From NCBI GenBank assembly GCA_002327845.1, contig DCUP01000006.1, positions 70,015 through 134,014 on the forward strand: 64,000 nucleotides of DNA. The letters are read 5' to 3'. A program made the translations under genes and the position numbers. Positions 11,783-32,891 of the stretch are shown piece by piece (position 1 is the stretch's first letter; every line of letters starts with the position of its first letter). Source of the DNA: Patescibacteria group bacterium UBA2211 (GTDB lineage: Bacteria > Patescibacteriota > Minisyncoccia > Minisyncoccales > Minisyncoccaceae). The notes beneath the pieces are model-generated. The model ran no database searches, had not been told where the DNA came from, and saw only the letters and a list, made by a program, of their open reading frames with translations.

Positions 11783-12520
11783 TTACATTAAAAATTCAAT
11801 TAAAGCTCCCAATAAACAAAGGAATCCGAATATTAAAGTAAACTTAGAAAAATTAACTTTCTTTGAAAAATCTAATAAAAGCTTCAATGATATTATTCCA
11901 AAAATAAAACTAAAAAATACTGCAATCCAAGAGTAAGAAGCAATGGTGGGATTATTTAAGTAAAGATATAAAGACGAGCCCAATACTATCGGCACTGATA
12001 TTATATACGATTTCTTTAATATTTCAGTTGGATTGTTTTCAGTTAAAGACAGTCCAAATATCGTTGAACCAGAACGAGAAACTCCAGGAATAGCTGAAAA
12101 TGCTTGTAATAATCCGACAATAACCGAAGATAAATCTTTATTAATATTTAGCTTGATATTTTTCTTTTGAAACCATGATGTTAATAGTAAACCCAAACCT
12201 GTCAAAGCTAAAAGCCCTGAACCCATAGAAACATCTCTAGCCATTTTATAAACAAAAAATCCCAATGTTCCAGAAATAAAAGTTACGATAATAAAAAATC
12301 TTAAAAACTCTTTATCTTTAAATAAAGTTAAATTAATCCAATCTCTCCAGAAATAAACTATTACTGCAAGCACTGTTCCTAGATGTAGAAATAAAGCTAA
12401 ATCAACACTATTAAAATCTTTAATTAAATAATTAGAAAATATAGCTACCACTCCTTCGCTTGAAACCGGTATCCACTCAAATATCCCCTGTAAAAAACCC
12501 AATAAAACATATTCCCACAT
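11783..12520 (-). CDS. uppP: Undecaprenyl-diphosphate phosphatase
   Basis: FEWIPVSSEG and PGVSRSGSTI motifs. Polytopic membrane protein. Confidence 0.85.
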   Translation of the reverse strand: MWEYVLLGFLQGIFEWIPVSSEGVVAIFSNYLIKDFNSVDLALFLHLGTVLAVIVYFWRDWINLTLFKDKEFLRFFIIVTFISGTLGFFVYKMARDVSMGSGLLALTGLGLLLTSWFQKKNIKLNINKDLSSVIVGLLQAFSAIPGVSRSGSTIFGLSLTENNPTEILKKSYIISVPIVLGSSLYLYLNNPTIASYSWIAVFFSFIFGIISLKLLLDFSKKVNFSKFTLIFGFLCLLGALIEFLM

Positions 12521-12521
12521 A

Positions 12522-13172
12522 TTATTTTTCTATTTTAACAAACCTGTATTTATTAAACTGATCTTTTAAAAAATTGAATCTTGAATATTTGTTCTTAATT
12601 ATTTCTTCTATTGAATCTTTTTGTTCTGGATCAAATTCAAGATAAATAATTCCATTATCTTTTAAATAATTAATTGCTTCCTCCAAGAAAATTTTAATAT
12701 ACTCCATTCCATCTCTACCACCATACAAGGCAATGGATGGTTCGAACATTTTAACATCTTCTCCAACTTCATCGATTCTATCTTCTGCAACATATGGAGG
12801 GTTAGCTAAAATATAATCGTACTTTTTTTTAATGTTTAAAAAAACATTCGTCTTAATTAAATTATATCTTTCTTTATCTATATTATTTAAATCAAGATTA
12901 ATTTTTATTTGTTCTAAAAATAAATCTTCTTTTTCTCCAAAATCACAAAAAGAATTTCTAACATTCTTTAAAATTGATATTCCTATACATCCTGAACCAG
13001 CAAATAAATCAAGACATTCCGCTCCCTCTTTAATTTCTTTAATTGCAACACTTACCCAATATTCGGTTTCATCTCTTGGTATTAACGGCCTTCTTGATAA
13101 ATCAATTTTTACTCTTAAAAAATCTTTAAAACCTTTTTTGTAATCTTCAGGCAAATCCATATTATCCAACAA
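12522..13172 (-). CDS. HemK/PrmC-like N5-glutamine (NPPY) methyltransferase
   Basis: SAM motif LDLFAGSGCIG and catalytic NPPY (LANPPYV). Confidence 0.75.
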   Translation of the reverse strand: MLDNMDLPEDYKKGFKDFLRVKIDLSRRPLIPRDETEYWVSVAIKEIKEGAECLDLFAGSGCIGISILKNVRNSFCDFGEKEDLFLEQIKINLDLNNIDKERYNLIKTNVFLNIKKKYDYILANPPYVAEDRIDEVGEDVKMFEPSIALYGGRDGMEYIKIFLEEAINYLKDNGIIYLEFDPEQKDSIEEIIKNKYSRFNFLKDQFNKYRFVKIEK

Positions 13173-19831: not shown

Positions 19832-21631
19832 TTAACTTTTATTGTCTTTTCTCTTCTGTCTTATTCTTTCAATCTCAGATAAAAACTGTTTTCTTAAACG
19901 AACATTTTTAGGAGTGATTTCTAAATATTCATCATCGCTCATAATACTCAATCCACCCTCCAATGTAACTCTAACAGGAGGTGTTAATTTTATCGCCTCA
20001 TCAGATCCAGAAGCTCTCATATTTGAAAGTTCTTTTCCTTTAGTTGGATTAACAGCCATATCGTTTCCCTTAGAAACATTTCCAATAACCATTCCTTCGT
20101 AAACTTCTTCAGCGTGACCAATATATAATACTCCTCTTTCCTGTAATCCCCATAGAGAAAATCCTGAAGATTTGCCAGTAACCATCGAAGTCATAGAACC
20201 GACAGTTCTCATCTCAATTTCACCAGCATATGGTCTAAAACCTAATACTCTGCTGGCTAAAATGCCCTCTCCGCGAGTGTCCATGACAAAGTCTGGCTTA
20301 TATCCCAATAGTCCTCTTGTTGGCATCTCAAAAACAATCCTAGTGTGTCCCTGTTCTGGCCTCATTTCTGTCATAATTCCCTTTCTTTTAGAAAGCTTTT
20401 CGATAACAATACCAGACATTTCATCAGGAACATCAATAATAACCTCTTCAAAAGGTTCAAGCTTTTTTCCGTCTTCTTCTTTAATAATTACTTGAGGTTG
20501 AGAAACTTGTAATTCAAATCCTTCCCTTCTCATTTTCTCTAAAAGAATAGCAATATGTAATTCTCCCCTTCCGTAAACTTTATAAAAATCTGTTGAAGAA
20601 AAATCTATTTTTAATCCTACGTTTACCTCTAATTCTTTTTCTAATCTTTCTCTTATTTGTCTATTGGTAACATATTTTCCATCTCTTCCAGCAAAAGGAG
20701 AATTATTAACTAAAAAGTTTAATGAAATAGTTGGTTCATCAATGCTAATTACGGGTAATGCTTCTTGATCTGGATTAGCACAAATAGTTTCTCCAATAAA
20801 AATATCTGCTATGCCGGCAATCATAATAACGTCTCCAGCGATAGCTTCTTCTGAGTCTCTTCTGTCTAATCCGTAAAAAGTATATATTTTAATAATCTTT
20901 CCCTTTCTTGCTTCTTCTTTAATTCCTTTAATGTAAACTTCGTCTCCTTTTTTAATCTTTCCTTCATAAATTCTGCAAACAGCTAATCTTCCTAAGAAAT
21001 TATCATATGCAAGATTAAAAGGTTGAGCTCTTAATGGCTTAGCAGTCAATTCTTCAGATGCTGCAGCTGGAACTTTCTCTAAAATTAAATCCAATAATGG
21101 AGTTAAGTCTTTAGATTCATCTTCCATTCTTCTTTTAGCTATTCCGTCTCTTCCGATAGCATAAATACATTCAAAATCAAGCTGTTCGTCGTTAGCTCCT
21201 AGATCCATGAATAGTTCCAAGACCATCTCTTTAACATCTTCTGGTCTAGACGCTGGCTTATCAATCTTGTTAATTACAACAATTGGTTTCAATCCTAACT
21301 CTAATGATTTTTTTAAAACAAATTTAGTCTGAGGCATCGGTCCTTCTTGAGCATCAACAACCAATAAAACAGAATCAATTGATCGCAAAACACGTTCTAC
21401 TTCCGAACCAAAATCAGCATGTCCAGGAGTATCCACGATGTTAATTTTTGTGTCTTTATAAAAGACAGAGGCATTCTTTGAATAAATAGTAATTCCTCTT
21501 TCTTTTTCCAATTCATTTGTATCCATTGTGAAGCCCTCTTCGGCCACTCCAGTTTGCCTCATTAAAGCATCTGTTAGTGTTGTTTTACCGTGGTCTACGT
21601 GGGCAATAATGGCTATATTTCTAATCTCCAT
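19832..21631 (-). CDS. typA: Translational GTPase TypA/BipA
   Basis: [29 protein letters not shown]. 599 aa. Confidence 0.95.
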
Positions 21632-21734: not shown

Positions 21735-22046
21735 TTAACAATGTTTTAAAAGCTCTTTAGTGTTAAAGCATTGATGATTAATACAATTACTCATCTTACA
21801 ATCGAAACAGACATAATCGCAACCTGTAAAAAATTGACTGTTAGTACACTGCATATTTTTACAGTTTAGACAAAAACGATTCGATTCGTAAAATTCGCAA
21901 AGATTATTAGGGCAAGATAGACAACATCCTCCGCACCTATTTTGAGAGATTAGTCGAGTAGCTTTGGTCATTTCGATCACACCTCTTTCCATTATCTTGA
22001 TCAGTGCTATGCGCTGCTTCCAAGTTCTTTGCAAAACGAAGTTCAT
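21735..22046 (-). CDS. Cysteine-rich small protein (14 Cys in the last 78 aa), higher-GC orphan
   Basis: CGGCCLSCPNNLC...CLNC...CDYVCFDCKMSNC...C. AAGAGGTG SD 8 nt before the internal ATG at 21971 (MTKATR) suggests a 78-aa product. Confidence 0.5.
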   Translation of the reverse strand: MNFVLQRTWKQRIALIKIMERGVIEMTKATRLISQNRCGGCCLSCPNNLCEFYESNRFCLNCKNMQCTNSQFFTGCDYVCFDCKMSNCINHQCFNTKELLKHC

Positions 22047-22124
22047 CCTTGCAAAAAAGTTCAGTAATTAATTTAAGCAAATCCATAACCATCACGCACT
22101 CTTCGCTCTTTATTTTGGCGAACT

Positions 22125-22152
22125 AAAAACAGTATATCATAATACTGTTTTT
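22125..22152 (-). terminator. Terminator closing the surface-protein operon
   Basis: ACAGTAT-loop-ATACTGT flanked by A5/T5 runs, immediately after the stop of 22160..23974. Confidence 0.6.
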
Positions 22153-22159
22153 ATTCAAC

Positions 22160-23974
22160 TTACTCGTCTTCCAAAGAAAATACTATTAGTCCTTTTTCTT
22201 TTATCAATTCCTCTTGTCCAAAATCGTTTAATTTAAAGTTTAAAACATAACCAACTTTTCTTTCAATTTTTCTTCCTGTATATTTGCTTGCATCAGGATC
22301 CCACTCTTCTAAAATAATAATGTCTCCTTCTTTTACTTCGAACTCAGCAACCCTAAGTTCGAAATTCTTCTTTTTTGAATTAACTAAATCAAAATATTCA
22401 GGAGGAATTTTTCTCTTAATTATATTTGGATTTGAATTAGGATTATGATTTAGTGGTGTTTCTTTATTTTTTTTCTTGTTAATAAAAAGTGATTTTGACC
22501 AGTAATATATAACAAGAATAATTAAACCAACAATAATAGCAATAAGTAAAATAATGATAGCGATAACACTTATTGTCCATTGCCCTATATTAAAATTCAG
22601 TGGTTGATTAGTGATAATAATCGTTTTTTCTATTGACTTAATTCTTGCGCCCTCATCATTGACCACCTCAACTGATACTTTATAGCTACCACCTCTTAAC
22701 TCTTCATTAATGGTGAAAGTAAAGTTTCCATCTTTATCGCTTTGAGTGATAAGCGCTTGAGCATCTTCCCCCTCTCTCTGAAGCCATAAAACAACCTTAG
22801 AATCAGAATATGTCGTTCCTTTTATATCAAAAACTTCTCCACTTTTCGCTTTTTCAGGACATTCAGTTATTTTTGGCGTATCTAAAGGATTAATAGTAAA
22901 TTCTACAGAATTGGCTGACATATTTCCAGCCTTATCAACAGCTTTAGCAATTAAAAGATATTTGCCATAACTTAATATTGGAGTTTCATAAATGCCGCTT
23001 CCAGTATCTTGCCAGTCTTGCATTCTTTCTTCATTTATTTGAATTTCATAATGATCAATACCAGAAGTTTCATCTTCGGAAACAAAACTAAATCTAACTC
23101 TAGGATTAGTTAAGTTATCTCTTTTGACTTCTTGGATATCAAAACTATTTGGTTTTTTAGTATCAACTTGAAAACGGAAATGAGAAACCTCTCCCCAGCC
23201 ATTAATATTGCGGAACTGAAGATGAAGATACCAAATTCCATCTTCTATATTATTTAATTCTTTTGAATTAATTAAAGTTGTAGAAATCATTGTCGGAATC
23301 GATTTTGCTATTTTATTAACAAGGATACGAACCCCAGTAATACTTGGAGACAAAGACCAATTAAATTTTGCGGTACTTGCGTTGTACCACCTACTACTAT
23401 CAGGATGAGTTGAAGAAGATATTATCGGTGCAACAGGAACACCTGGAGTTTCTGGCTCTTCTATTGTTATTGCTTTCGCTTCACCCAATGTAAACGTTGC
23501 AGTCCCTAAATTTGAAAGAATATTTGTTCCTTGGCCATCATTCGCAAGAACAGAACTAGAAGAAAAAGAAACAGGAGCTGAGCCAGTAGATTTAACCTTA
23601 AAATTAACTGTTAATATCTTTCCAGACGAACCAGTGAAACCAGACAACGCAATGCCCTCAAAATTAACTGTTCCAGTACTATTAGAAAAAGATGGCTCTT
23701 GGGCCCATAAAGTAAAAATTGATCCCGCCTTAGAAATAGAAACAACCTCAAGTTTATCTTGAGGGAATGATATAGTTCCTGAAGCAGCATTCATTGCTTG
23801 ATCAGAACTAGAGACATAGACATTAACTGGAATAGAACCACCAACAGTATAGGAACCTGAAGCTGGATAAAAAACCAAACTTGCAGCTTGTATAGACGTC
23901 GGCAAAAAACCCAAAAAGGTAAATAATAAAATAACAAAAAATTTTAAAAATATTATTTTTTGTATTTTTTCCAT
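22160..23974 (-). CDS. Cohesin-domain surface protein with Ig/FN3-like repeats, TM anchor and cytoplasmic ASCH/DUF3850-like tail
   Basis: Signal peptide and cohesin-like N-domain (LVFYPASGSYTVGGSIPVNVYV...NAASGTISFPQDKLEVVSI...VLANDGQGTNIL). STHPD...WY module. TM WTISVIAIIILLIAIIVGLIILVIYYW. Tail IPPEYFDLV...FELRV...GDIIILEEWD...YTGRKIERKVGYV. Confidence 0.7.
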   Translation of the reverse strand: MEKIQKIIFLKFFVILLFTFLGFLPTSIQAASLVFYPASGSYTVGGSIPVNVYVSSSDQAMNAASGTISFPQDKLEVVSISKAGSIFTLWAQEPSFSNSTGTVNFEGIALSGFTGSSGKILTVNFKVKSTGSAPVSFSSSSVLANDGQGTNILSNLGTATFTLGEAKAITIEEPETPGVPVAPIISSSTHPDSSRWYNASTAKFNWSLSPSITGVRILVNKIAKSIPTMISTTLINSKELNNIEDGIWYLHLQFRNINGWGEVSHFRFQVDTKKPNSFDIQEVKRDNLTNPRVRFSFVSEDETSGIDHYEIQINEERMQDWQDTGSGIYETPILSYGKYLLIAKAVDKAGNMSANSVEFTINPLDTPKITECPEKAKSGEVFDIKGTTYSDSKVVLWLQREGEDAQALITQSDKDGNFTFTINEELRGGSYKVSVEVVNDEGARIKSIEKTIIITNQPLNFNIGQWTISVIAIIILLIAIIVGLIILVIYYWSKSLFINKKKNKETPLNHNPNSNPNIIKRKIPPEYFDLVNSKKKNFELRVAEFEVKEGDIIILEEWDPDASKYTGRKIERKVGYVLNFKLNDFGQEELIKEKGLIVFSLEDE

Positions 23975-24819
23975 AAAAATTTATAAGTTAGGAATATTAA
24001 AATTATTCCTATCGTTATAATAACATAAAACAAATAATTTTTGTATAGTGTGTTAAGCCTAACTACTCTTTCGTTGCCATTATTGTCTACTGCTTTAACT
24101 AAAATTTCTTCATTTGGATTTTGATTTTGCAAAAGATAAGGACTTTCTGCTCTAACACAAGTTCTTCTTTCTTCGCATACTTCATAATAATTAATTCCCG
24201 AACCCTTATCTTGAGTAGCGAACACTAAAAAGTATTTTCCATTAAAAATTGTTGGATCTTTTGTTATTGTTACATTAAATTCTTCTGGTACATCAATATC
24301 TTTCTTTTCAATTGTCTTTAATTGTGAAGCTGGTGCGTACTGAGAAACAACAAATTGAAAATCAGAAATTGTCGTCTTCGTTTCTGTCCCTTTACCGTCA
24401 TTAAGTAATGCTTTCGTGTTCGTAATTTTAATAGAACCAGCTCCTTCTTGTATCGATTCAAAAATAACTGAAAATATCAAACCTCTTTTATCAAAATAAC
24501 CACCAGGAATTATTCCTGAGAATAAAATATTATTACTTCCTATTTTTGGTCGTTCATTCCAAAAATTAATAATAGAATTTCCATCTCTTATTTCTTTCAG
24601 TTTAAGAAGTTTTTCTGGAAAAATAATATTTCCTTCGATAGCATTAATGTCTTCTTCTTCAGTATTAATAAATAGATTGACTTCAAATTCATCTCCCATT
24701 TTAATTTGCGGACTTTCAACTTCAAAAAAAACTTCTGCCGCAAAAACTGAAGATATAGGGACCAGAAATACGGCTATAAGAATAATTATTTTAAATTTTA
24801 TAATTTGTTGTGTGTTCAT
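23953..24819 (-). CDS. Cohesin-domain protein with C-terminal TM anchor
   Basis: Signal peptide. Cohesin-like FFEVESPQIKMGDEFEVNLFI...INAIEGNIIFPEKLLKLKEI...ALLNDGKGTE. C-terminal LFYVIITIGIILIFLTY. Confidence 0.7.
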   Translation of the reverse strand: MNTQQIIKFKIIILIAVFLVPISSVFAAEVFFEVESPQIKMGDEFEVNLFINTEEEDINAIEGNIIFPEKLLKLKEIRDGNSIINFWNERPKIGSNNILFSGIIPGGYFDKRGLIFSVIFESIQEGAGSIKITNTKALLNDGKGTETKTTISDFQFVVSQYAPASQLKTIEKKDIDVPEEFNVTITKDPTIFNGKYFLVFATQDKGSGINYYEVCEERRTCVRAESPYLLQNQNPNEEILVKAVDNNGNERVVRLNTLYKNYLFYVIITIGIILIFLTYKFLWKKYKK

Positions 24820-24822
24820 ATA

Positions 24823-26328
24823 TCATCCTGTCCAATAATAAGCCATAATACTAAAATCAACTAAATCGACTTTGCCATCATTATTTAAATCAATGTTTGC
24901 TGGCGGTGATGCTTTTTTATACCAATAAGCAGCAATAGAAAAATCGACAAGATTTATCTTCTTATCATTATTTACGTCACCCCTTGAAACAACTTGGGTT
25001 ATTGGATTATAAACATTCTTTGTTCCAACCACAAAAGATACAACTTTACTAAAAGAACTTATATTACCATTAAGCGCTACTTTTGATCTTGTAGAATGAT
25101 CTCCCATCTCAAGGAGTGCTGTATCAAAATTGTATAAATAGACACCGTTTTTATCGGATTGTATTTTGCTAAAAATTTCTTCATCGGAATTAACTGAAAT
25201 TGTTATTTCACTGTTAGGGGTACTTTGTCCAAAAATTTGAATATCATCTCCCCTCTTTACTTCTTTTTTATCAACTGCAATTGTGGGAGCTATAAAAATA
25301 CCTCCGACACTAGTAGTTGCTCCTGAAGTTACGCTTATCGGAAAAGTTAAAAGAGAAGAACGAACACCTTTGCTGTCTTCCGAATATACGCTGAAAATAT
25401 AATTACCACCAGCAAGACCGCTTAAAGTTAAAGAAAAATTAGCATTAGCGTCAGTAATAGTAGTTGCTGCAACTTGAGCGTCTTTTAATAAAGTAATAGT
25501 ACTCTTAGGATAAGCTCGTCCAGAAAAAATAGCACTGGTAACGGGGGGAATATAGACTCCTCCGCCTCCGCCTCCTCCACCACCACCGCCACTAGGACAA
25601 CTTCCACAGTCAGCAGAACAAGTACTACAAGTTTCTGAACCATTGCAAGTACTATCACCACAAGAAGGAGGACAAATTCCACAATCAGTAGAACAAGTAC
25701 TACAAGTTTCTGAACCATTGCAAGTACTATCACCACAAGAAATAAGAGCATCGCCCAAAATAGCAAAATAGCTAAAATTTGAACTAGTTGCTGTAATTTT
25801 GTTTAAATTTTCATCTACAACGCTATCGGTTAAAAGGCTCCAAGCTGAACCATTCCAACGATAAACACCTAGAGTACTTTCGTTTATTCCACTAATGTCA
25901 GAATTTTCATAAGAAAAATCTAATGTAATATCCTTATCAAAAACGTGAACAGGAGTTTCATCGCTTGTTTTTTTGAAAGATATATTATAAAAAACCTCAG
26001 CTCCTAATTTTCCAATTGGTAATTGTTTACTATCTATAACAGATGCTTTGGGAATAGAATGAATAGTAGTTTCTACTTCGTCCCCCGAAGTTAAAACATA
26101 GTCTGGAGTATTAATTTCAAGACTTGAATTATTGGGATTAGTTATTGTTACTATTGATGGTATAGTCGTGTCTATATTCTCAATTTTTTCAGCATAATAA
26201 ATTTGAATTTGAAAATTAGCACTTGATCCTGCCGATACTAATTGTGGAATAAAATTAAAAATGCAAAACAAAAAAACAGATAAAAGAATAAAAAAACTGA
26301 TTTTCAATTTTGTGCTCTTGTTTTGCAT
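24823..26328 (-). CDS. Secreted protein with Cys-rich tandem modules, poly-Gly linker, Ig-like region and C-terminal dockerin
   Basis: Signal peptide. 2x CGDSTCNGSETCSTCS[TA]DCG[IS]CP. G11 run. Dockerin duplicated Ca-loop DVNNDKKINLVDF / DLNNDGKVDLVDF (24826-24987). Confidence 0.75.
   Translation of the reverse strand: MQNKSTKLKISFFILLSVFLFCIFNFIPQLVSAGSSANFQIQIYYAEKIENIDTTIPSIVTITNPNNSSLEINTPDYVLTSGDEVETTIHSIPKASVIDSKQLPIGKLGAEVFYNISFKKTSDETPVHVFDKDITLDFSYENSDISGINESTLGVYRWNGSAWSLLTDSVVDENLNKITATSSNFSYFAILGDALISCGDSTCNGSETCSTCSTDCGICPPSCGDSTCNGSETCSTCSADCGSCPSGGGGGGGGGGGVYIPPVTSAIFSGRAYPKSTITLLKDAQVAATTITDANANFSLTLSGLAGGNYIFSVYSEDSKGVRSSLLTFPISVTSGATTSVGGIFIAPTIAVDKKEVKRGDDIQIFGQSTPNSEITISVNSDEEIFSKIQSDKNGVYLYNFDTALLEMGDHSTRSKVALNGNISSFSKVVSFVVGTKNVYNPITQVVSRGDVNNDKKINLVDFSIAAYWYKKASPPANIDLNNDGKVDLVDFSIMAYYWTG
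25602..25740 (-). repeat. Tandem 75-bp in-frame repeat (2 copies) encoding the Cys-rich module
   Basis: 25602-25665 versus 25677-25740 differ at 2 positions. A 50-bp core is identical. Confidence 0.9.
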
Positions 26329-26336
26329 TTTAATTT

Positions 26337-28253
26337 TTAATTTGCAGTTATGGTCAATACCATATTAATATCATAATCACTTGCCACTGGTTGTTCTGTG
26401 GGAATTTTTTGACTAATAGAAACACCTTGAAGCGTCCAATCTCCAATATCATCAGAAGCTGAGGTTGCACTAAGTAACGTAATAGAATTAACGGGTGTTC
26501 CAGCTACTTCATCGAAAGCAGCTGACGATCCCTTACTAACACCAGTCAAGGTACACGATCCACATTGTCCTATTGCTAAAGTAGCAACAGAAGGATCAAT
26601 TGTCATTTGTCCACCTACAGCATCAGCGTCTGTAGCATGATCAGTACATCCTGTACCTGTTCCCGGATCATTAAAATCATAATCTGTACCAGCACTGTCC
26701 CAAACATTTGTTGTTGCTTGTGCTGCTACAGTTAAAGTCCAACCATTATCAGCAGCATCATTATTATTAACATAAATCTGTTGCGAAGCCGTACCAAAAC
26801 TCCCCGTAATTGTTTGACAAGAAAAAGAAAAAGTCGCACTACTCATGGCCATTGTTGGACTAGAAACAGTAACATAACTAGCATCAACAATATCAGCAGA
26901 TAAAGAACCACAAGATCCTGTCGCTTGGTCAGAAGTTGCAGCAGAATAAGGACCTTCTCCTGAAGCATTAGTCGAACGAACCTGATAACGATAAATAGTA
27001 CCGCCACAAGTTAATCCAGAATCATCATAATAAGCATTTGTTACTCCTGAAGCAATTTCAGAAAAATTTGTACAACCAGTTCCAGAACAACGCTCTACTC
27101 TATAACTAGTCGCTCCGCCAGTTGGAGCAGTCCAATTAAGTCTTAAGCTTGTTCCTTGAACGTTAGTAAAATTAAGAGAAGTCGGTGCCCCTGGACGAGT
27201 TAAAATACTTGCTTCAGCTGATAATGGAGATTCTTCGCTTGCAGTATCATAATCAGTAACTGAATAATAATATGTTGTATTTCCTGTTGTTGAACTATCA
27301 GTATAAGAATTAGTAGTAGAGTTTGCTAAAAATGTTGAAACTGGAGAAGCACCATCTCTATAAACCTTGTAAGGGGTTGTTGCATGAAGTCCATTTGCTC
27401 CAGTTCCAGCCGTACTAGTTGTCCAATTAAGTTGCGCATTTGTTGTTCCTGCTGGCGCAGAAGCACTAAGTCCAGTCGGAGCAAAATTAACAACGATATT
27501 ATCAACAGCAATACTAGTTCCAGCAGCGGAAGAATTTCTCACATTAAAATTAACACGAATAGTATAATTAGTACCACCAGTCAAAGAAACATCACTACTA
27601 AAACTAGTTGTTGTCCATGAAGTACTGGCGGTCATAAGAGCACAACCAAGATTAGCTATACGTGTTGTATTACCAGAATCCCAAATTTCAAGAGAAACCA
27701 TGCCAGTACCCCAGCCTGTACCAGTACCATAATAACTAAATTTTCCTTTTGCTTTTACTGTTCCACTACCAGGAGCAGTAACTGTTTGATAAATCATTCC
27801 TCTATAATTTTTATTTTTTGTTGCTGGAGTACCTGCTGCAAAAGCTGTTTGTCCTCCCATACTACTACTATATATAAAAGTTAAAAAAGTGTATTCAGTA
27901 GCATCAGTACCATTACACGCAGTTGATGATCCGCTTGAAGTACCATCTGTAGATGTCCAACCAGTAGAATTACCATTAAAATTCCAATTATTTGTTTTAT
28001 TTAAAGCAAACACTTCTTCCGTTTCAAAGGGAACTCTAGGATTTTGCCAAATTGGAGGCCAACCAGAAAATAACCAACTAAAAATTAAAGTAAAAACTAC
28101 AAGTTTTATAAAAATCTTTTTAGAGAAAAATTGTTTAGAAAATTTTACTTCTTTAAAAATATTCCGCCAGAAATTTGCAAAAATATCTATCCCTTCATAC
28201 GTTTTTTTATTCTGTTGGTGGGACTTTAATTTTTTGTCTTGTTTTAAGAGCAT
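26337..28253 (-). CDS. Large surface protein: TM anchor, CBM/jelly-roll-like region, two FN3 domains, C-terminal WxL-like domain
   Basis: FN3 signatures (LNWT...YKVYRDG; LRLNWTAP...YRVERC...YRYQVRSTN). IAVDNIVVNF end of a jelly-roll-like module. The last ~190 aa are paralogous to 29387..30094. T/S/G/A-rich. The start overlaps the upstream gene by 47 nt, so it is uncertain. Confidence 0.65.
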   Translation of the reverse strand: MLLKQDKKLKSHQQNKKTYEGIDIFANFWRNIFKEVKFSKQFFSKKIFIKLVVFTLIFSWLFSGWPPIWQNPRVPFETEEVFALNKTNNWNFNGNSTGWTSTDGTSSGSSTACNGTDATEYTFLTFIYSSSMGGQTAFAAGTPATKNKNYRGMIYQTVTAPGSGTVKAKGKFSYYGTGTGWGTGMVSLEIWDSGNTTRIANLGCALMTASTSWTTTSFSSDVSLTGGTNYTIRVNFNVRNSSAAGTSIAVDNIVVNFAPTGLSASAPAGTTNAQLNWTTSTAGTGANGLHATTPYKVYRDGASPVSTFLANSTTNSYTDSSTTGNTTYYYSVTDYDTASEESPLSAEASILTRPGAPTSLNFTNVQGTSLRLNWTAPTGGATSYRVERCSGTGCTNFSEIASGVTNAYYDDSGLTCGGTIYRYQVRSTNASGEGPYSAATSDQATGSCGSLSADIVDASYVTVSSPTMAMSSATFSFSCQTITGSFGTASQQIYVNNNDAADNGWTLTVAAQATTNVWDSAGTDYDFNDPGTGTGCTDHATDADAVGGQMTIDPSVATLAIGQCGSCTLTGVSKGSSAAFDEVAGTPVNSITLLSATSASDDIGDWTLQGVSISQKIPTEQPVASDYDINMVLTITAN

Positions 28254-29361
28254 AGGGCGGTTCTAGTTTATTTACTTTAGCAATAAGCTTCCAGGAAACA
28301 TTAAATTTATCAGCAAGAGATTTAATATTTTCACCCGACTTAACAGAATAATCAACCCAATTATCTTTAATCCATCTCTTTCTCTTCTTTGAAAGCCAAA
28401 GAAGGAATACGGCAAACAAAATCAATAATAAAACTACAATTTCTATTATTAACCCTGGTAGTGTTGGAAAACTAAAAAACCACACAGAAGGACCTACTAG
28501 TTTAGTTAATTTTTTACCACTTTCTATTCCAATTCCAGCTTCTTGGTTTTCATCATACTCAACGGTAAATGTTGACACATACAAACCACCCCAAAAAGGT
28601 TTTTTAAGTTCAAAATTCCAATCAGAAGTTTCTCCTCGTAAAATCGGGTATTGTCCGCCATGAGTGATATATTTTAAGCCAAAAAAATAACGAGTCGTTA
28701 CTTGCGCATTCGCATCGATAGAAACATTACCATTGTTTTTCACTAAAGGATGCAAAGAAAAACCTCCTTTATTGTTTGGTTTTACGGTAAAACCAACTAT
28801 TTCTAAATTTCTTGTAAGATCTCCTGGAATCGTAATTACAACTCGAAGACCGGTACGAAAAGATAAACTAGCTCCACTTTTATCATTCGTTTCTTCCTTC
28901 TTTTCTTGCATAACAATACAACCATTATGCTCTCCCGCGCTTGCATTTTCGGGAACATTAATAGTAAAAGGATCTATTTCGTTTGTTCCTGGCTCAAGAG
29001 TTATTTCAGATTTTTCAAGTTCTATCCATGTGCCAACATCTTTTTGTTTATCTAAAACTTGAGAACAAGCAAAAGCACCCTCAGTGGATGGAACAGAATC
29101 AACCGCATTAATTAATATCGTTTTTCGCTCACTGGTATTATTTAATATTAATACACCTTCTTCTTGAGTATCACCTGGTTCAAGAGTATGAACAAAAATA
29201 GATTCTGTACGAGGATTGCCATCTTGAGGATAAGCAGGTCTACCACCAAAACCACCATATTCAATCGCAAAAACATTATTAATATAAAAAGAAACAACTA
29301 ATATAGGCAAACAAATGGCAATAAGTCGTATCGCTCTTATTTTGATACTCAGGTTGTGCAT
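28207..29361 (-). CDS. DUF916/DUF3324-like (CscA-like) cell-surface protein with TM segment and C-terminal LysM
   Basis: FVHTLEPGDTQEEGVLILNNTSERKTILINAVDS...EGAFAC resembles DUF916. GFTVKPNNKGGFSLHPLVKNNGNVSI resembles DUF3324. TM LIIEIVVLLLILFAVFLLWL+KKRKR. LysM YSVKSGENIKSLADKFNVSWKLIAKVNKL...KIKVP. Confidence 0.6.
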   Translation of the reverse strand: MHNLSIKIRAIRLIAICLPILVVSFYINNVFAIEYGGFGGRPAYPQDGNPRTESIFVHTLEPGDTQEEGVLILNNTSERKTILINAVDSVPSTEGAFACSQVLDKQKDVGTWIELEKSEITLEPGTNEIDPFTINVPENASAGEHNGCIVMQEKKEETNDKSGASLSFRTGLRVVITIPGDLTRNLEIVGFTVKPNNKGGFSLHPLVKNNGNVSIDANAQVTTRYFFGLKYITHGGQYPILRGETSDWNFELKKPFWGGLYVSTFTVEYDENQEAGIGIESGKKLTKLVGPSVWFFSFPTLPGLIIEIVVLLLILFAVFLLWLSKKRKRWIKDNWVDYSVKSGENIKSLADKFNVSWKLIAKVNKLEPPYALKTRQKIKVPPTE

Positions 29362-29386
29362 AAATTTTTTATTAAATTTTAGATAC

Positions 29387-30094
29387 TTATAAAGCAGTTG
29401 CAGTAAGAACTAAATTAATATCATAATCGCTAGCAGCTGGTTGTTCTGCGGGAATTTTTTGACTAATACTAATACCTGTTGCTTTCCAATCACCGATATC
29501 ATTAGAACCACTTGTTGCAGAAATAATATTTATACTATCTGTTACGCCCTCACTAAAAGAGGATGGTGAAGCACCCAAGGTAACACCTGTTGTATCACAA
29601 CTTGCACAAGCTCCTTTTGATAACGTTCCAACCGATGGATCAACAGTCATCTGTCCACCAACAGTATCACCAACATCAGCACCATCAGTACAACCAGAAC
29701 TAGTTGGATCGTTAAAATCAAAATCCACACCAGCACTATCCCATACAGCACTAGTACTTGAACCTGCTAAGGCTAAATTCCAACCAGAATCAGCGGCATC
29801 AGGATTAGAAACATAAATTTGCTGAGTTGCTTCACCAAAAGTACCAGTTTTTGTTTGACAAGAAAAACTAAATGTTGCTGCAGTCATTGCAAAAGAAGGA
29901 CTTGCAACGGTAACATAACTACCATCAACTATGTCTGCCGCAAGAGTACCAGCATTAATAGTTTGAGTAAAGTTTGAGGTTGCTGATGCTAAAACATATG
30001 TTGTTCCTCCTAATCCACCAGCTAACAACACAGCTAAACACAATGTAACTGCTATATTTAATTTTCCTAAAAATATTCTAATTATATTTTTCAT
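29387..30094 (-). CDS. Secreted WxL-like domain protein
   Basis: Signal or anchor peptide. GTLAADIV...FAM...F.F, NPDAADSGWNLAL (GW.L), GDWKATGISI and C-terminal YDINLVLTATAL resemble WxL-domain layout. Confidence 0.55.
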   Translation of the reverse strand: MKNIIRIFLGKLNIAVTLCLAVLLAGGLGGTTYVLASATSNFTQTINAGTLAADIVDGSYVTVASPSFAMTAATFSFSCQTKTGTFGEATQQIYVSNPDAADSGWNLALAGSSTSAVWDSAGVDFDFNDPTSSGCTDGADVGDTVGGQMTVDPSVGTLSKGACASCDTTGVTLGASPSSFSEGVTDSINIISATSGSNDIGDWKATGISISQKIPAEQPAASDYDINLVLTATAL

Positions 30095-30346
30095 AATTAT
30101 TTATTATATTTATTATTTTTTATATTATATAGAAACAAAAAATCGACCAAGAATTTAACTACCTCATAATTATTAATTTAAAATTAAACAAATAAAAACA
30201 ACTATCTATTGTTTTTTTCGCACTAGAAAAATTAAAACTTGGATAAATTAGAACATTCGATAAATTACTATACATCATTTAAAATATTATCTGCATTTTT
30301 ATTGTTTTAACTTGAAAATATTATGACATCACTATCATCATACTTA

Positions 30347-30375
30347 ATTTTATTAAATAATATTTATCCTGTCAA
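30347..30375 (-). promoter_or_regulatory. Candidate sigma70 promoter upstream of the surface operon
   Basis: TTGACA (30370-30375), 17 bp, TAAAAT (30347-30352) on the minus strand. About 245 nt upstream of the ATG at 30094. Confidence 0.4.
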
Positions 30376-30440: not shown

Positions 30441-32891
30441 TTAATCTATTTTTCCACAACATTTTTTGTATTTTTTCCCACTTCCGCAAGGACAAGGATC
30501 ATTCCTACCAATTTCTTCTTTGGAAGCACCACTTCCCCTGTCTTCAGAAATAACTTGCATCTGATTAGGAGCACTTTCTACCTTAATTGTTGCCCTCATA
30601 ATGCTCTCTACAAGCATTCTTTCATAGTTCTCTAGTAATTCCTTAAACATTTTGTATCCCTCCTTCTTATACTCAACTAGAGGGTCTCTTTGACCATAAG
30701 CTCTTAACCTGACCGAATCTTTTAAGCTTTCCATGTTCTCCAAGTGTTCAATCCAAAGATTATCTATCACTCTTAAGCCAGCCACTTTTTCAATTTGTCT
30801 CATATTATCTACTCCAACCTCTTTTTCTTTCTTTTCGTAATCTTCTTGAGAATAATCATATTTTTCTAATAAGGGTAAAATTAATTCTTTTAATTCTCCC
30901 TTTTCTGATTTTTCTAGTATTTCAACTCTTTTTGAATAAATTGTTGTTCTTTGTTTATTCAAAACATCATCATATTCCAAAATATGCTTTCTAGCGTCAA
31001 AATTAAATCCTTCTATTTTTCCTTGAGCTGATTCAATGCTTCTAGAAATCATTCCATTCTCAATGGGAGTGTCTTCAGGAATATTGAATTTTTCCATTAA
31101 TGATTTAATTCTATCTCCGCCGAATATTCTAATAACATCATCATCTAGAGAAACAAAAAATTGGGTTGCTCCTGGATCTCCTTGTCTTCCTGCTCTTCCT
31201 CTTAATTGATTATCAATTCTTCTCGCTTCATGTCTTTCAGTTCCAATAACATGTAAGCCACCCAACTTCTTAACTTCTTCGTTTTCTTCTGGTGTTGATG
31301 GTTTTCCTCCTAAATAAATATCAACTCCACGACCAGCCATATTAGTAGCAATAGTAACGCCACCCTTTCTTCCAGCTTGAGCAATAATCTCACCCTCTTC
31401 TTCGTGGTGTTTAGCATTCAAAACTTTATGAGGAATTCCCTCTCTTGATAATAATTTATCTAAATATTCATTCTTTTCAATTGAAGTTGTTCCAACTAAT
31501 ACTGGCTGACCTGTTTTGTATTTTTCTTTAACCTCTTCAGCTACTGCTCTAAACTTAGCTTCTTCTGTTTTATAAACTTTATCTCCTAAGTCTTTTCTAA
31601 CAATATCTTTATTGGTTGGAATAACAACAACATCTAAATGATATACTTTATCAAATTCTTCAGCCGATGTTTCAGCTGTTCCTGTCATTCCAGCAAGCTT
31701 TTCATACATTCTAAAATAGTTCTGGAATGTAATTGAAGCTAAAGTTATTGATTCAGGCATAATTCTCACTCCCTCTTTGGCTTCTATTGCTTGATGTAAC
31801 CCACCAGACCATCTTCTTCCTGGCATCATTCTGCCAGTAAATTCGTCAACAATAATAATTTCACCGTTTTTAATGACATAGTCTTTGTCTTTCTTAAAAA
31901 GAATTTCTGCTTTAAGGGCCTGTTCCATATGATGAAGATATTTTATTCCTCTTTCATCATAAATATTACCAACATTTAAAACTGCTTCTATCTTATCGAT
32001 TCCTTTTTCAGTTAAAGTAACAGCTCTTAATTTTTCATCAACCTCATAATCTTCCTCTTTGTTTAATCTAGGAATAATTTTTGAAAATTCTGTATACCAT
32101 TTTGATCCTTCTTCATCGGGAGCAGAAATAATTAAAGGTGTTCTAGCTTCATCAATCAATATTGAATCTACTTCATCAACGATTGCATAATTAAATCCTC
32201 TCTGCATTCTATTCTTTAAATCATAGACCATGTTGTCTTTCAAATAATCAAAACCAAACTCATTATTTGTTCCATAAGTAATATCGCAATCGTAAGATTC
32301 TTTTCTTGAACAAGGTCTTAAAAAATCTTCTTCAACTAAAAATCCTCCGAGCTCGTCTCTTTCTTCATCTTTCTTCTCTTCAGCTTTTTTGTATTCTGAG
32401 TCATAGATAAAAGATTGGTCATGATTTATACAACCGACAGTTAATCCAAGAAAATTATATATCTGACCCATCCAAACAGCATCTCTTCTTGATAAGTAAT
32501 CATTAACAGTAACTAAGTGACATCCTTTGCCTAAAAGAGAGTTTAAAACCAAAGGTAAAGTTGCAGTTAATGTTTTTCCTTCTCCTGTTCTCATCTCAGC
32601 AATTTTACCTTGGTGTAGAGCTATTCCTCCAATCAATTGACAATCAAAATGCCTTTGATTAAGAGTTCTCTTACCAGACTCTCTTACTAAAGCAAAAACT
32701 TCCGGTAAAACATTGTCTATCACTTCCCCATCAGTTAATCTTTTTTTAATATCCTGTATTTTAACCTTAATTTCTTCAGGACTTAAAGCCGAAACCTCAG
32801 TCTCTAAATCATTAATTTGATTGATTAAAGGCTTTAAACTATTTGCGTATTTAGTGTTTGCGTTGCCAAAAAGGCTTTCTAGAAATGCCAT
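30441..32891 (-). CDS. secA: Preprotein translocase ATPase SecA
   Basis: MRTGEGKTL, DEVDSILIDEARTPLIIS, TNMAGRGVDI, C-terminal zinc motif CPCGSGKKYKKCCG. Confidence 0.97.
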   Translation of the reverse strand: MAFLESLFGNANTKYANSLKPLINQINDLETEVSALSPEEIKVKIQDIKKRLTDGEVIDNVLPEVFALVRESGKRTLNQRHFDCQLIGGIALHQGKIAEMRTGEGKTLTATLPLVLNSLLGKGCHLVTVNDYLSRRDAVWMGQIYNFLGLTVGCINHDQSFIYDSEYKKAEEKKDEERDELGGFLVEEDFLRPCSRKESYDCDITYGTNNEFGFDYLKDNMVYDLKNRMQRGFNYAIVDEVDSILIDEARTPLIISAPDEEGSKWYTEFSKIIPRLNKEEDYEVDEKLRAVTLTEKGIDKIEAVLNVGNIYDERGIKYLHHMEQALKAEILFKKDKDYVIKNGEIIIVDEFTGRMMPGRRWSGGLHQAIEAKEGVRIMPESITLASITFQNYFRMYEKLAGMTGTAETSAEEFDKVYHLDVVVIPTNKDIVRKDLGDKVYKTEEAKFRAVAEEVKEKYKTGQPVLVGTTSIEKNEYLDKLLSREGIPHKVLNAKHHEEEGEIIAQAGRKGGVTIATNMAGRGVDIYLGGKPSTPEENEEVKKLGGLHVIGTERHEARRIDNQLRGRAGRQGDPGATQFFVSLDDDVIRIFGGDRIKSLMEKFNIPEDTPIENGMISRSIESAQGKIEGFNFDARKHILEYDDVLNKQRTTIYSKRVEILEKSEKGELKELILPLLEKYDYSQEDYEKKEKEVGVDNMRQIEKVAGLRVIDNLWIEHLENMESLKDSVRLRAYGQRDPLVEYKKEGYKMFKELLENYERMLVESIMRATIKVESAPNQMQVISEDRGSGASKEEIGRNDPCPCGSGKKYKKCCGKID

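Follow-up and report, generated by a model that had tools for sequence, protein, structure and literature searches.

A conserved six-gene cluster of ultra-small Patescibacteria as a possible, undescribed apparatus for surface display or attachment

A large part of bacterial diversity belongs to the Patescibacteria, which apparently live attached to other cells. To our knowledge, almost none of their surface molecules are known. Here we describe six genes, g1 to g6, on the minus strand of a 64,000-nucleotide (nt) stretch of DNA from Patescibacteria group bacterium UBA2211 (contig DCUP01000006.1; the whole stretch is hereafter called the window). The genes form an operon for cell-surface proteins and seem to encode an undescribed apparatus of these ultra-small bacteria for surface display or attachment. 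The operon joins a module built around a DUF916-type protein, with the anatomy of the WxL clusters of Firmicutes, to a cohesin-dockerin module. We consider it probable, if only modestly so, that the operon is ancestral in Patescibacteria and encodes a cell-surface display apparatus with two non-covalent tethers. Our preferred reading of the system is a variant of WxL-type surface display that is undescribed in the literature searched.

The open reading frames (ORFs) run from 30094 down to 22160, exactly where a preliminary description of the window had placed six co-directional, tightly spaced genes, and they are also called as genes in the matching public contig of a metagenome-assembled genome (MAG; GCA_002402885.1, DHGS01000004.1). 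We denote the protein families by letters: W for g1 and the C-terminal domain of g3, I for g2, D for g4, C for g5 and g6, and 'e' for a beta-lactamase-like protein. In the order of transcription, the genes are the following:

29387-30094, minus strand: g1, 235 amino acids (aa), small secreted W protein
28207-29361, minus strand: g2, 384 aa, WxLIP-like platform protein
26337-28253, minus strand: g3, 638 aa, large W protein
24823-26328, minus strand: g4, 501 aa, D family, dockerin-tailed
23953-24819, minus strand: g5, 288 aa, C family, cohesin-like
22160-23974, minus strand: g6, 604 aa, C family, cohesin and DUF3850

The spacing is tight: g1 and g2 are 25 nt apart, g2 and g3 overlap by 47 nt, 8 nt separate g3 from g4 and 3 nt separate g4 from g5, and g5 and g6 overlap by 22 nt; a consensus scan found no internal terminator between g3 and g4. 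No further gene of the W, I, D, C, 'e' or 'f' families is found elsewhere within the window.

A scan of species-representative genomes gave 79 loci and look-ups of exact proteins gave more; 81 species-level loci, numbered with the prefix L, were analysed by tblastn with the window proteins and by all-against-all clustering of their ORFs. A g2 gene lies no more than 2 kb downstream of g1 in 68 of the 81, and the loci without a g2 gene nearby are mostly of the Gracilibacteria/Peribacteria type or on truncated contigs. Where at least 9.5 kb of downstream sequence is available, at least two W domains, one small and one large, are present in 46 of 48 loci. The D family occurs in 35 of the 81 loci and the C family in 23, and the recurrent gene order is W-I-(e)-W-D-C-C. 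As the flanking genes vary from locus to locus, the cluster itself is the conserved unit. With its order conserved, it occurs in most of the major lineages sampled, namely Parcubacteria-type groups, Microgenomates, Dojkabacteria, Gracilibacteria/Peribacteria-type groups, Peregrinibacteria and Saccharimonadales. Thus, the conservation of the gene neighbourhood, which the preliminary description had proposed as a check, was borne out: many distant genomes have both modules next to each other in one order, and the genes are not scattered.

The surroundings of this core show some variation. In about 15 loci, a beta-lactamase-like gene (about 320 aa, PF13354), which has no counterpart in the window, lies between the DUF916 and large W genes (L004, at 11819-12778; also L018, L020, L023, L035, L036, L075 and others). 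Its product may be an accessory enzyme of the system with a wall-related function. The window (28207-28253) and L004 (11819-11865) both have the 47-nt overlap of the g2 end with the gene that follows, and that next gene starts with a similar peptide, M[LR]L[KN]Q[DE]KKL[KR]S, in both, although it encodes the large W protein in the window and the beta-lactamase-like protein in L004. Seven loci of the Gracilibacteria/Peribacteria type (L019, L026, L030, L037, L044, L048 and L062) have three or four small W genes in tandem, and in loci of this type the DUF916 gene is found about 7 kb upstream of them. Their ORFs are fragmented under translation table 11, probably because of UGA recoding (code 25). 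Eleven typical clusters carry organism labels from outside the Candidate Phyla Radiation (CPR; L009, L014, L024, L028, L038, L043, L053, L056, L069, L070 and L072), among them uncultured Gammaproteobacteria, Ectothiorhodospiraceae, Christensenellaceae and Pseudomonadales, with binchicken MAGs among the sources. The GC content of these loci, 36-50%, is inside the range of the other loci, and the labels are probably unreliable.

The protein that links the cluster to known display systems is g2, which, judged by its sequence, is a genuine relative of DUF916/WxLIP proteins. It comprises a signal peptide, a WxLIP_PGBD/DUF916 domain, a second, unassigned beta domain, a transmembrane (TM) helix, the stretch KKRKRW and a LysM domain:

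28906-29229, minus strand: WxLIP_PGBD/DUF916 domain of g2 (PF06030; aa 45-152), 33.3 bits in Pfam against a cut-off of 27.3 bits
aa about 300-327 of g2, minus strand: TM helix, seen in the sequence and followed by KKRKRW
28219-28350, minus strand: LysM domain of g2 (aa 338-381), above the Pfam gathering threshold

Among the 35 members of the g2 family, 29 match WxLIP_PGBD and 32 match LysM. The family profile also matches the solved structure of EfmWxLIP1 (9i25_C, 9i1y_A) at E 3.8e-7, and the alignment starts from the mature N-terminus. The DUF916 domain, the TM helix and the LysM domain announced in the preliminary description are thus all present; its DUF3324 assignment is taken up below.

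The genes on either side of g2 both encode a W domain. In g1, a signal peptide is followed by a conserved mature N-terminal peptide (SATSNFTQTINAGTL) and by an all-beta W domain of about 190 aa, in which the family alignment reveals four conserved Cys residues and two invariant Trp residues, W105 and W203, in the contexts GW-x-[LV] and DIGDW-x-L. The C-terminal W domain of g3 (aa 449-637; nt 26340-26909) is 64% identical to g1. Members of the g1 family, at 60-72% identity, come from lineages with the labels Nomura-, Azam-, Falkow-, Doudna-, Colwell-, Kerfeld- and Peregrinibacteria; all named members are annotated as 'hypothetical', and none has a precomputed Pfam domain. An exhaustive profile search yielded 678 representative W clusters at 50% identity. 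Small W proteins have about 230 aa, whereas the large ones, in which the domain is C-terminal, reach up to 1961 aa.

The preliminary description had identified g1 and the C-terminus of g3 as WxL proteins. No direct test supported this identity, and what remains WxL-like is the anatomy of the cluster. For comparison, we assembled a set of true WxL proteins from annotated plasmid clusters found via the EfmWxLIP1 segment, to which about 120 further PF13731 proteins were added. Control true WxL proteins score 143-229 bits on the Pfam model PF13731, whereas none of 35 g1-family members matches it at E<=10; likewise, the g1 family profile has 0 matches at E<=10 among PDB sequences. Alignment of the W and WxL profiles with hhalign covers some 25-40 columns around the first motif (IYVxNPDAADNGWxVSL in W, IQVTDKRGTxxGWxLxV in WxL) at E of about 0.04 and a probability of about 1%, and its score of 17, against 14-15 for reversed-profile controls, is at noise level. 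A first AlphaFold2 model of the W domain had a predicted local distance difference test (pLDDT) score of 65. With a diverse alignment, pLDDT rose to 94.6, with a predicted template-modelling score (pTM) of 0.89, and the model has an all-beta fold. The AlphaFold and Foldseek check put forward in the preliminary description gave no support to the WxL identity, as this model has no significant neighbour in the PDB (best E 0.03, TM-score <=0.43). The solved long-WxL chain 9i25_A is absent among the 50 Foldseek matches listed, a negative of limited power, as true WxL domains are themselves hyper-divergent and the small-WxL profile itself reaches 9i25_A only at E 0.12. Foldseek matches with a probability above 0.4 are all non-significant and are all subunits of donor-strand-complemented fibres (CsuA/B, FimA and Pyrodictium cannulae), the top matches being CsuA/B, FimA, SafA and cannulae at E 0.03-0.2 and TM-scores of 0.3-0.43. 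Given the results from Pfam, hhalign with its reversed controls and Foldseek, we therefore do not assign the W domain to the WxL family. It is an unannotated all-beta family specific to Patescibacteria.

L085 is a bona fide WxL cluster on an Enterococcus faecalis plasmid (NZ_CP124902.1, 23530-35970) and adjoins genes for a glycoside-hydrolase-domain protein and a lytic polysaccharide monooxygenase (LPMO). Its large protein of 1424 aa, a pectate-lyase-like adhesin, has no PF13731 match, which indicates that large-type WxL domains easily escape the Pfam model and limits the power of the Pfam negative for W.

What precedes the W domain in the large W proteins, their N-terminal passenger, is not conserved across homologues. 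In g3, an N-terminal signal anchor precedes a domain without family match (aa about 70-255), a tandem of fn3 domains and the W domain:

26931-27476, minus strand: tandem fn3 domains of g3 (aa about 260-441), from Pfam fn3 and from phmmer matches to fibronectin fragments in the PDB

The two fn3 domains are as the preliminary description had them. It had also proposed a domain like a carbohydrate-binding module (CBM), and there the region concerned, aa 62-255, has no Pfam or PDB match, hence no CBM is confirmed. The passengers of 43 large W representatives include ConA-like and H-type lectins, PATR beta-helix repeats, immunoglobulin (Ig)-like domains and several DUFs, and none of them contains a cohesin or a dockerin.

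As for the second module, g4 is, as already described, a secreted Cys-repeat protein that ends in a dockerin. It comprises a signal peptide, the motif SSANFQIQI, a variable region, two Cys-rich repeats, a poly-Gly linker, two Ig-like domains of the Big_6 type (with a Big_6 Pfam match near threshold) and the dockerin. Both g5 and g6 are membrane-anchored cohesin proteins. In g5, a signal peptide, a cohesin-like domain and a second Ig-like module are followed by a C-terminal TM helix and KKYKK, and in g6 a signal peptide, a cohesin and Ig-like modules including a Big_13 domain are followed by a TM helix and a DUF3850/ASCH-like domain on the predicted cytoplasmic side:

24826-24981, minus strand: type-I dockerin of g4 (aa 450-501), with two DxNxDxxxxLVDFSI F-hand repeats
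24340-24738, minus strand: cohesin-like domain of g5 (aa about 28-160), from paralogy to g6 and from the family profile
23531-23848, minus strand: cohesin of g6 (PF00963; aa 43-148), 31.9 bits against a cut-off of 24.1 bits
aa about 457-480 of g6, minus strand: TM helix
22238-22420, minus strand: DUF3850/ASCH-like domain of g6 (PF12961; aa 519-579), 57 bits, E 2.3e-15, with a weak ASCH match

Dockerin_1 (PF00404) matches aa 450-496 of g4 with 30.0 bits against a cut-off of 22.9 bits, the two F-hand repeats are visible in the sequence as DVNNDKKINLVDFSI and DLNNDGKVDLVDFSI, and 17 of 22 g4-family members match the same Pfam model. No Pfam model matches g5 itself; BLASTP (1e-16 across the cohesin region) shows it to be a paralogue of g6, whose N-terminal half it resembles, and the two proteins also have a second module in common beyond that region. 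Pfam Cohesin is found in 2 of 21 g5-family members, and the family profile matches the PDB cohesins 5aoz and 5m2o at 2e-4 to 1e-3. Of the 12 g6 homologues, 8 match Cohesin and all 12 match Big_13. The ASCH-like domain that the preliminary description placed inside the cell is thus present, and its place beyond the TM helix and a stretch rich in K predicts a cytoplasmic location. This DUF3850 tail occurs only in the g6 of the window among the 12 homologues; in the 11 others, the TM helix is followed by a charged helical tail of about 65 aa or by almost nothing.

How the D proteins end and what follows their genes are complementary. Dockerin tails, counted by Pfam scan and by reading of the C-terminal sequences, have two L[IV]DFSI F-hands and a terminal WTG. 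In 22 of 22 assessable loci, the gene of a dockerin-tailed D protein is directly followed by one or two C-family genes; a 23rd such locus was left out, as its sequence ends 866 nt after the D gene. The D proteins of L016 and L036, on the other hand, have no dockerin and end in a TM segment followed by K/R residues, and no cohesin gene follows their genes within 5.1 and 2.5 kb downstream, respectively. The D protein of L078 has a similar TM-type tail, with 419 nt of downstream sequence available. This complementarity between dockerin with cohesin and an own TM segment suggests that the cohesin-dockerin pair serves as the membrane anchor of the D protein. That the pair is a membrane tether for D is our strongest functional inference; the putative physical contact between the dockerin of g4 and the cohesins of g5 and g6 would be Ca-dependent.

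The two modules also share a peptide. Small W and D proteins have the motif (S/T)(S/T)xSN(F/L)x(I/Q)x(I/V), or SNF motif, right after the predicted signal-peptide cleavage site: ASATSNFTQTI at aa 36-46 of g1 and AGSSANFQIQI at aa about 33-43 of g4. Among small W proteins, 43 of 75 have it, as do 15 of 23 D proteins, as opposed to 1 of 51 large W, 0 of 33 C and 1 of 62 I proteins. Since g1 and g4 have it in common, whatever reads this peptide, be it a sorting or processing step or a binding groove, would act on one component of each module. The conserved peptide at the mature N-terminus is not part of the confidently folded core in the model of g1. A similar sequence, TSNGxVxF, opens bona fide small WxL proteins.

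Taken together, these features suggest the following mechanism. Held in the membrane by its C-terminal TM helix, g2 would be a platform on which the W domains of g1 and g3 dock, probably by beta-strand complementation. The large W protein g3 would present outward a binding passenger that is interchangeable and specific to the lineage. The secreted g4 would be tethered via its dockerin to the cohesins of g5, g6 or both, which would hold it through their own C-terminal TM helices. The two modules, g1 to g3 and g4 to g6, would work together, as suggested by their single order, their single transcription unit and the N-terminal peptide common to g1 and g4. Outward display and adhesion would then be the purpose of the apparatus. 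It is tempting to think of attachment to a host, given the lectin, Ig, fn3 and beta-helix passengers predicted in the homologues.

Several observations weigh against this scheme. In about 60% of the loci with enough flanking sequence, the core is found without the cohesin-dockerin trio, so the coupling must be facultative or the trio must be elsewhere in those genomes. As the W domain is not demonstrably a WxL domain, the case for a docking of W on g2 is built on the adjacency of the genes and on the Firmicutes analogy rather than on homology of both partners. The DUF3324/WxLIP_HBD domain (PF11797) that the preliminary description had assigned to g2 is matched by 0 of 35 g2-family members at E<=0.01, whereas an E. 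faecalis control protein matches it at 1.5e-32; at aa about 160-300, g2 has a beta-rich segment resembling the HBD in size and position. The LysM domain of g2 follows the TM helix and KKRKRW and is thus predicted to be cytoplasmic by the positive-inside rule, a location that the display model does not explain; in canonical WxLIP proteins of Firmicutes, nothing follows the TM helix (PMC10599100). Mature g1 (29390-29962) is more conserved than the translational GTPase TypA (19832-21631) in the same genome pairs (64% versus 42% and 52% versus 48%; L039, L083), which fits a structural or polymeric role better than that of a simple anchor. Finally, the sole genetic study of a Patescibacterium, transposon sequencing (Tn-seq) in Southlakia, has no recognisable homologue of the cluster, and the Southlakia genome annotation table has no DUF916, WxL or cohesin Pfam entry.

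The conservation of g1 leads to a first alternative, namely that the W proteins are the subunits of a donor-strand-exchange, pilus-like surface fibre of a monoderm cell. In such a fibre, g1 would polymerise head-to-tail via its N-terminal SNF peptide and the large W protein g3 would cap it as the tip adhesin. Completion and anchoring of the basal subunit would fall to g2, while the g4 peptide would plug the groove of a W domain, with the dockerin tied to the membrane cohesins. A near-invariant N-terminal peptide that is outside the folded core and present in small W and D but not in large W proteins is what this model calls for, and a conservation above that of TypA is expected of polymer interfaces. 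In addition, the Foldseek matches above a probability of 0.4 are all donor-strand fibre subunits, albeit non-significant ones, and WxLIP was reported to be a strand donor to WxL (Hassan 2023, PMC10599100; PDB 9i25). Nevertheless, no structural match is significant, the W monomer model is confident and compact, and the SNF motif could equally be a sorting or processing signal; we therefore regard the fibre as unlikely. If it did exist, it would be a previously unrecognised class of surface fibre that could be the long-sought, superphylum-wide structure for host contact, and the WxL systems of Firmicutes would work likewise.

We also find it improbable that W-I-W and D-C-C are independent surface modules that merely lie side by side in some lineages. 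The many loci with the core but without the trio speak for such independence, as do the lack of cohesin or dockerin on any passenger and the presence of a membrane anchor in each module. Nevertheless, 35 loci have the D gene behind that of the large W protein, with the order kept and with differing flanks, only 8 nt without an internal terminator separate g3 from g4, and the N-terminal motif common to g1 and g4 spans both modules.

More doubtful still is the idea that the cluster encodes a general structural component of the envelope, such as a factor for wall organisation or an S-layer-like coat, that all Patescibacteria need and that has no part in attachment. The superphylum-wide spread of the cluster, the very high conservation of g1 and g2 and the occurrence of peptidoglycan-related modules (DUF916/PGBD, LysM and, in about 15 loci, the beta-lactamase-like gene) are in line with it. 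The hypervariable, adhesin-like passengers point instead to variable external targets, S-layer proteins are usually poorly conserved, and the Southlakia annotation tables show no recognisable homologue. As for a cellulosome-like or Csc-like complex that captures or degrades polysaccharides for nutrition, carbohydrate utilisation was the first role linked to cohesin-dockerin pairs and to Csc clusters (Siezen 2006, PMC1534035), homologues have lectin-type passengers and the Firmicutes WxL cluster L085 adjoins glycoside-hydrolase-domain and LPMO genes, but such a function is highly improbable, as neither the window cluster nor the conserved set contains a glycoside hydrolase, a lyase or an esterase, no multi-cohesin scaffoldin is present, with one cohesin per C protein, and the sole dockerin-bearing protein has Ig-like domains and no enzyme domain. 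The absence of a glycoside hydrolase from the cluster, already remarked upon in the preliminary description, was upheld by Pfam, and no carbohydrate-active enzyme (CAZyme) domain was found in g1-g6 or in the conserved accessory families.

The signals that border the display operon are the following:

30347-30375, minus strand: sigma-70-like promoter candidate TTGACA-17-TAAAAT, with 11 of 12 consensus matches, about 250 nt upstream of the g1 ATG
about 22119-22157, minus strand: hairpin like that of an intrinsic terminator, followed by a U-run and located immediately behind the g6 stop, found by folding

The promoter had been predicted at precisely this place, and it is the top-scoring promoter-like site of the region. 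However, such sites are no commoner there than in shuffled sequences (39 observed versus 35.5 expected in a consensus scan of the region), and the site is thus compatible with a promoter without being proof of one. The terminator, predicted at 22125-22152, fared better: the hairpin has a minimum free energy of -13.7 kcal/mol and a z-score of -4.48, and 0 of 200 shuffles are equally stable. The consensus terminator scan missed it because of its AT-rich stem. Between the promoter-like site and the start of g1, an AT-rich leader of about 250 nt (30095-30346) has no obvious Shine-Dalgarno sequence. At gathering thresholds, Rfam detects no RNA family, tRNAs included, in the leader or in the whole 64 kb. 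The cluster is flanked by SecA (30441-32891) and, beyond a small Cys-rich ORF, by TypA/BipA (19832-21631). That ORF (21735-22046, minus strand; 103 aa with 14 Cys) lies between the terminator hairpin of the cluster and TypA. It has no signal peptide, matches no Pfam or NCBIfam model, is followed by a terminator-like hairpin of its own (21731-21718) and is uncalled in the NCBI record of the contig.

In full-text literature, we found no description of the cluster and no paper linking its components with Patescibacteria/CPR, the dockerin literature having been examined via the Southlakia study only, and none of a combination of WxL-type and cohesin-dockerin parts, in agreement with the preliminary description. 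Three possible links were discarded. The essential dockerin protein SEML1_0315 of Southlakia is encoded by a standalone gene and not in such a cluster, the 'PGBD' proteins of an mBio 2024 metatranscriptome are of the PG_binding_1 type (PDB 1lbu) rather than DUF916 proteins, and a Nat Commun 2025 paper on 'signal-strapping' mentions DUF916 only as a gene neighbour.

With g1, a key component of the proposed display apparatus is a secreted protein that is more conserved than a translational GTPase and is nevertheless 'hypothetical' and without a Pfam family. Our study offers concrete targets in the conserved anchor domain, the DUF916 platform, the exchangeable adhesin passengers and the cohesin-dockerin membrane tether, and it extends DUF916-type display systems far beyond Bacilli. 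The D proteins moreover provide a natural experiment, in which a cohesin-dockerin pair stands in place of a TM anchor.

How does this cluster compare with known systems? The fold of W has a weak, non-significant resemblance to subunits of donor-strand fibres (chaperone-usher pili, TasA and Pyrodictium cannulae; E >=0.03, TM-score <=0.43). The conserved N-terminal peptide of g1 outside the core and a partner related to the reported strand donor WxLIP are further likenesses, but the cluster has no usher, chaperone or SipW-type gene. The likeness to non-cellulosomal cohesin-dockerin pairs lies in the C-terminal type-I dockerin of g4 and its duplicated Ca-binding F-hand, in the single, cell-anchored cohesins of g5 and g6, and in the adjacency and strict co-occurrence (22 of 22) of the partner genes. 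Unlike such pairs, this system has no multi-cohesin scaffoldin and no enzyme cargo, its anchor is a C-terminal TM helix and not SLH domains or a sortase, and its pair, located in a DUF916-type cluster, seems to replace a direct TM anchor.

The closest parallel is with the WxL/Csc clusters of Lactobacillales and Bacillales. WxL clusters are defined by a minimum of one WxLIP together with two WxL proteins in adjacent genes (Hassan 2023, PMC10599100), and more than 91% of WxL sequences were found in Firmicutes in published surveys (Hassan & Williamson 2022, PMC9772566). Our cluster has the same trio: a small secreted protein made up of just the anchor domain, a large one that has this domain C-terminally, behind variable binding passengers, and, adjacent to them, a protein with a signal peptide, DUF916, a second beta domain and a C-terminal TM helix. 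By sequence, g2 is, by its homology, a true DUF916 relative with a C-terminal TM helix, as in WxLIP. W is also alike in being an all-beta domain of about 190 aa with two invariant Trp residues in W-x-[LV] contexts, although it is not detectably WxL by Pfam, hhalign or Foldseek. In contrast to the small and large WxL domains of Firmicutes, which differ from each other, the small and large copies of W are of one domain type (64% identity). There is no DUF3324 signal and no LPxTG protein in the present cluster, and g2 has an additional LysM domain after its TM helix. The lineage is Patescibacteria rather than Bacilli, and the display genes are coupled to those of a cohesin-dockerin pair.

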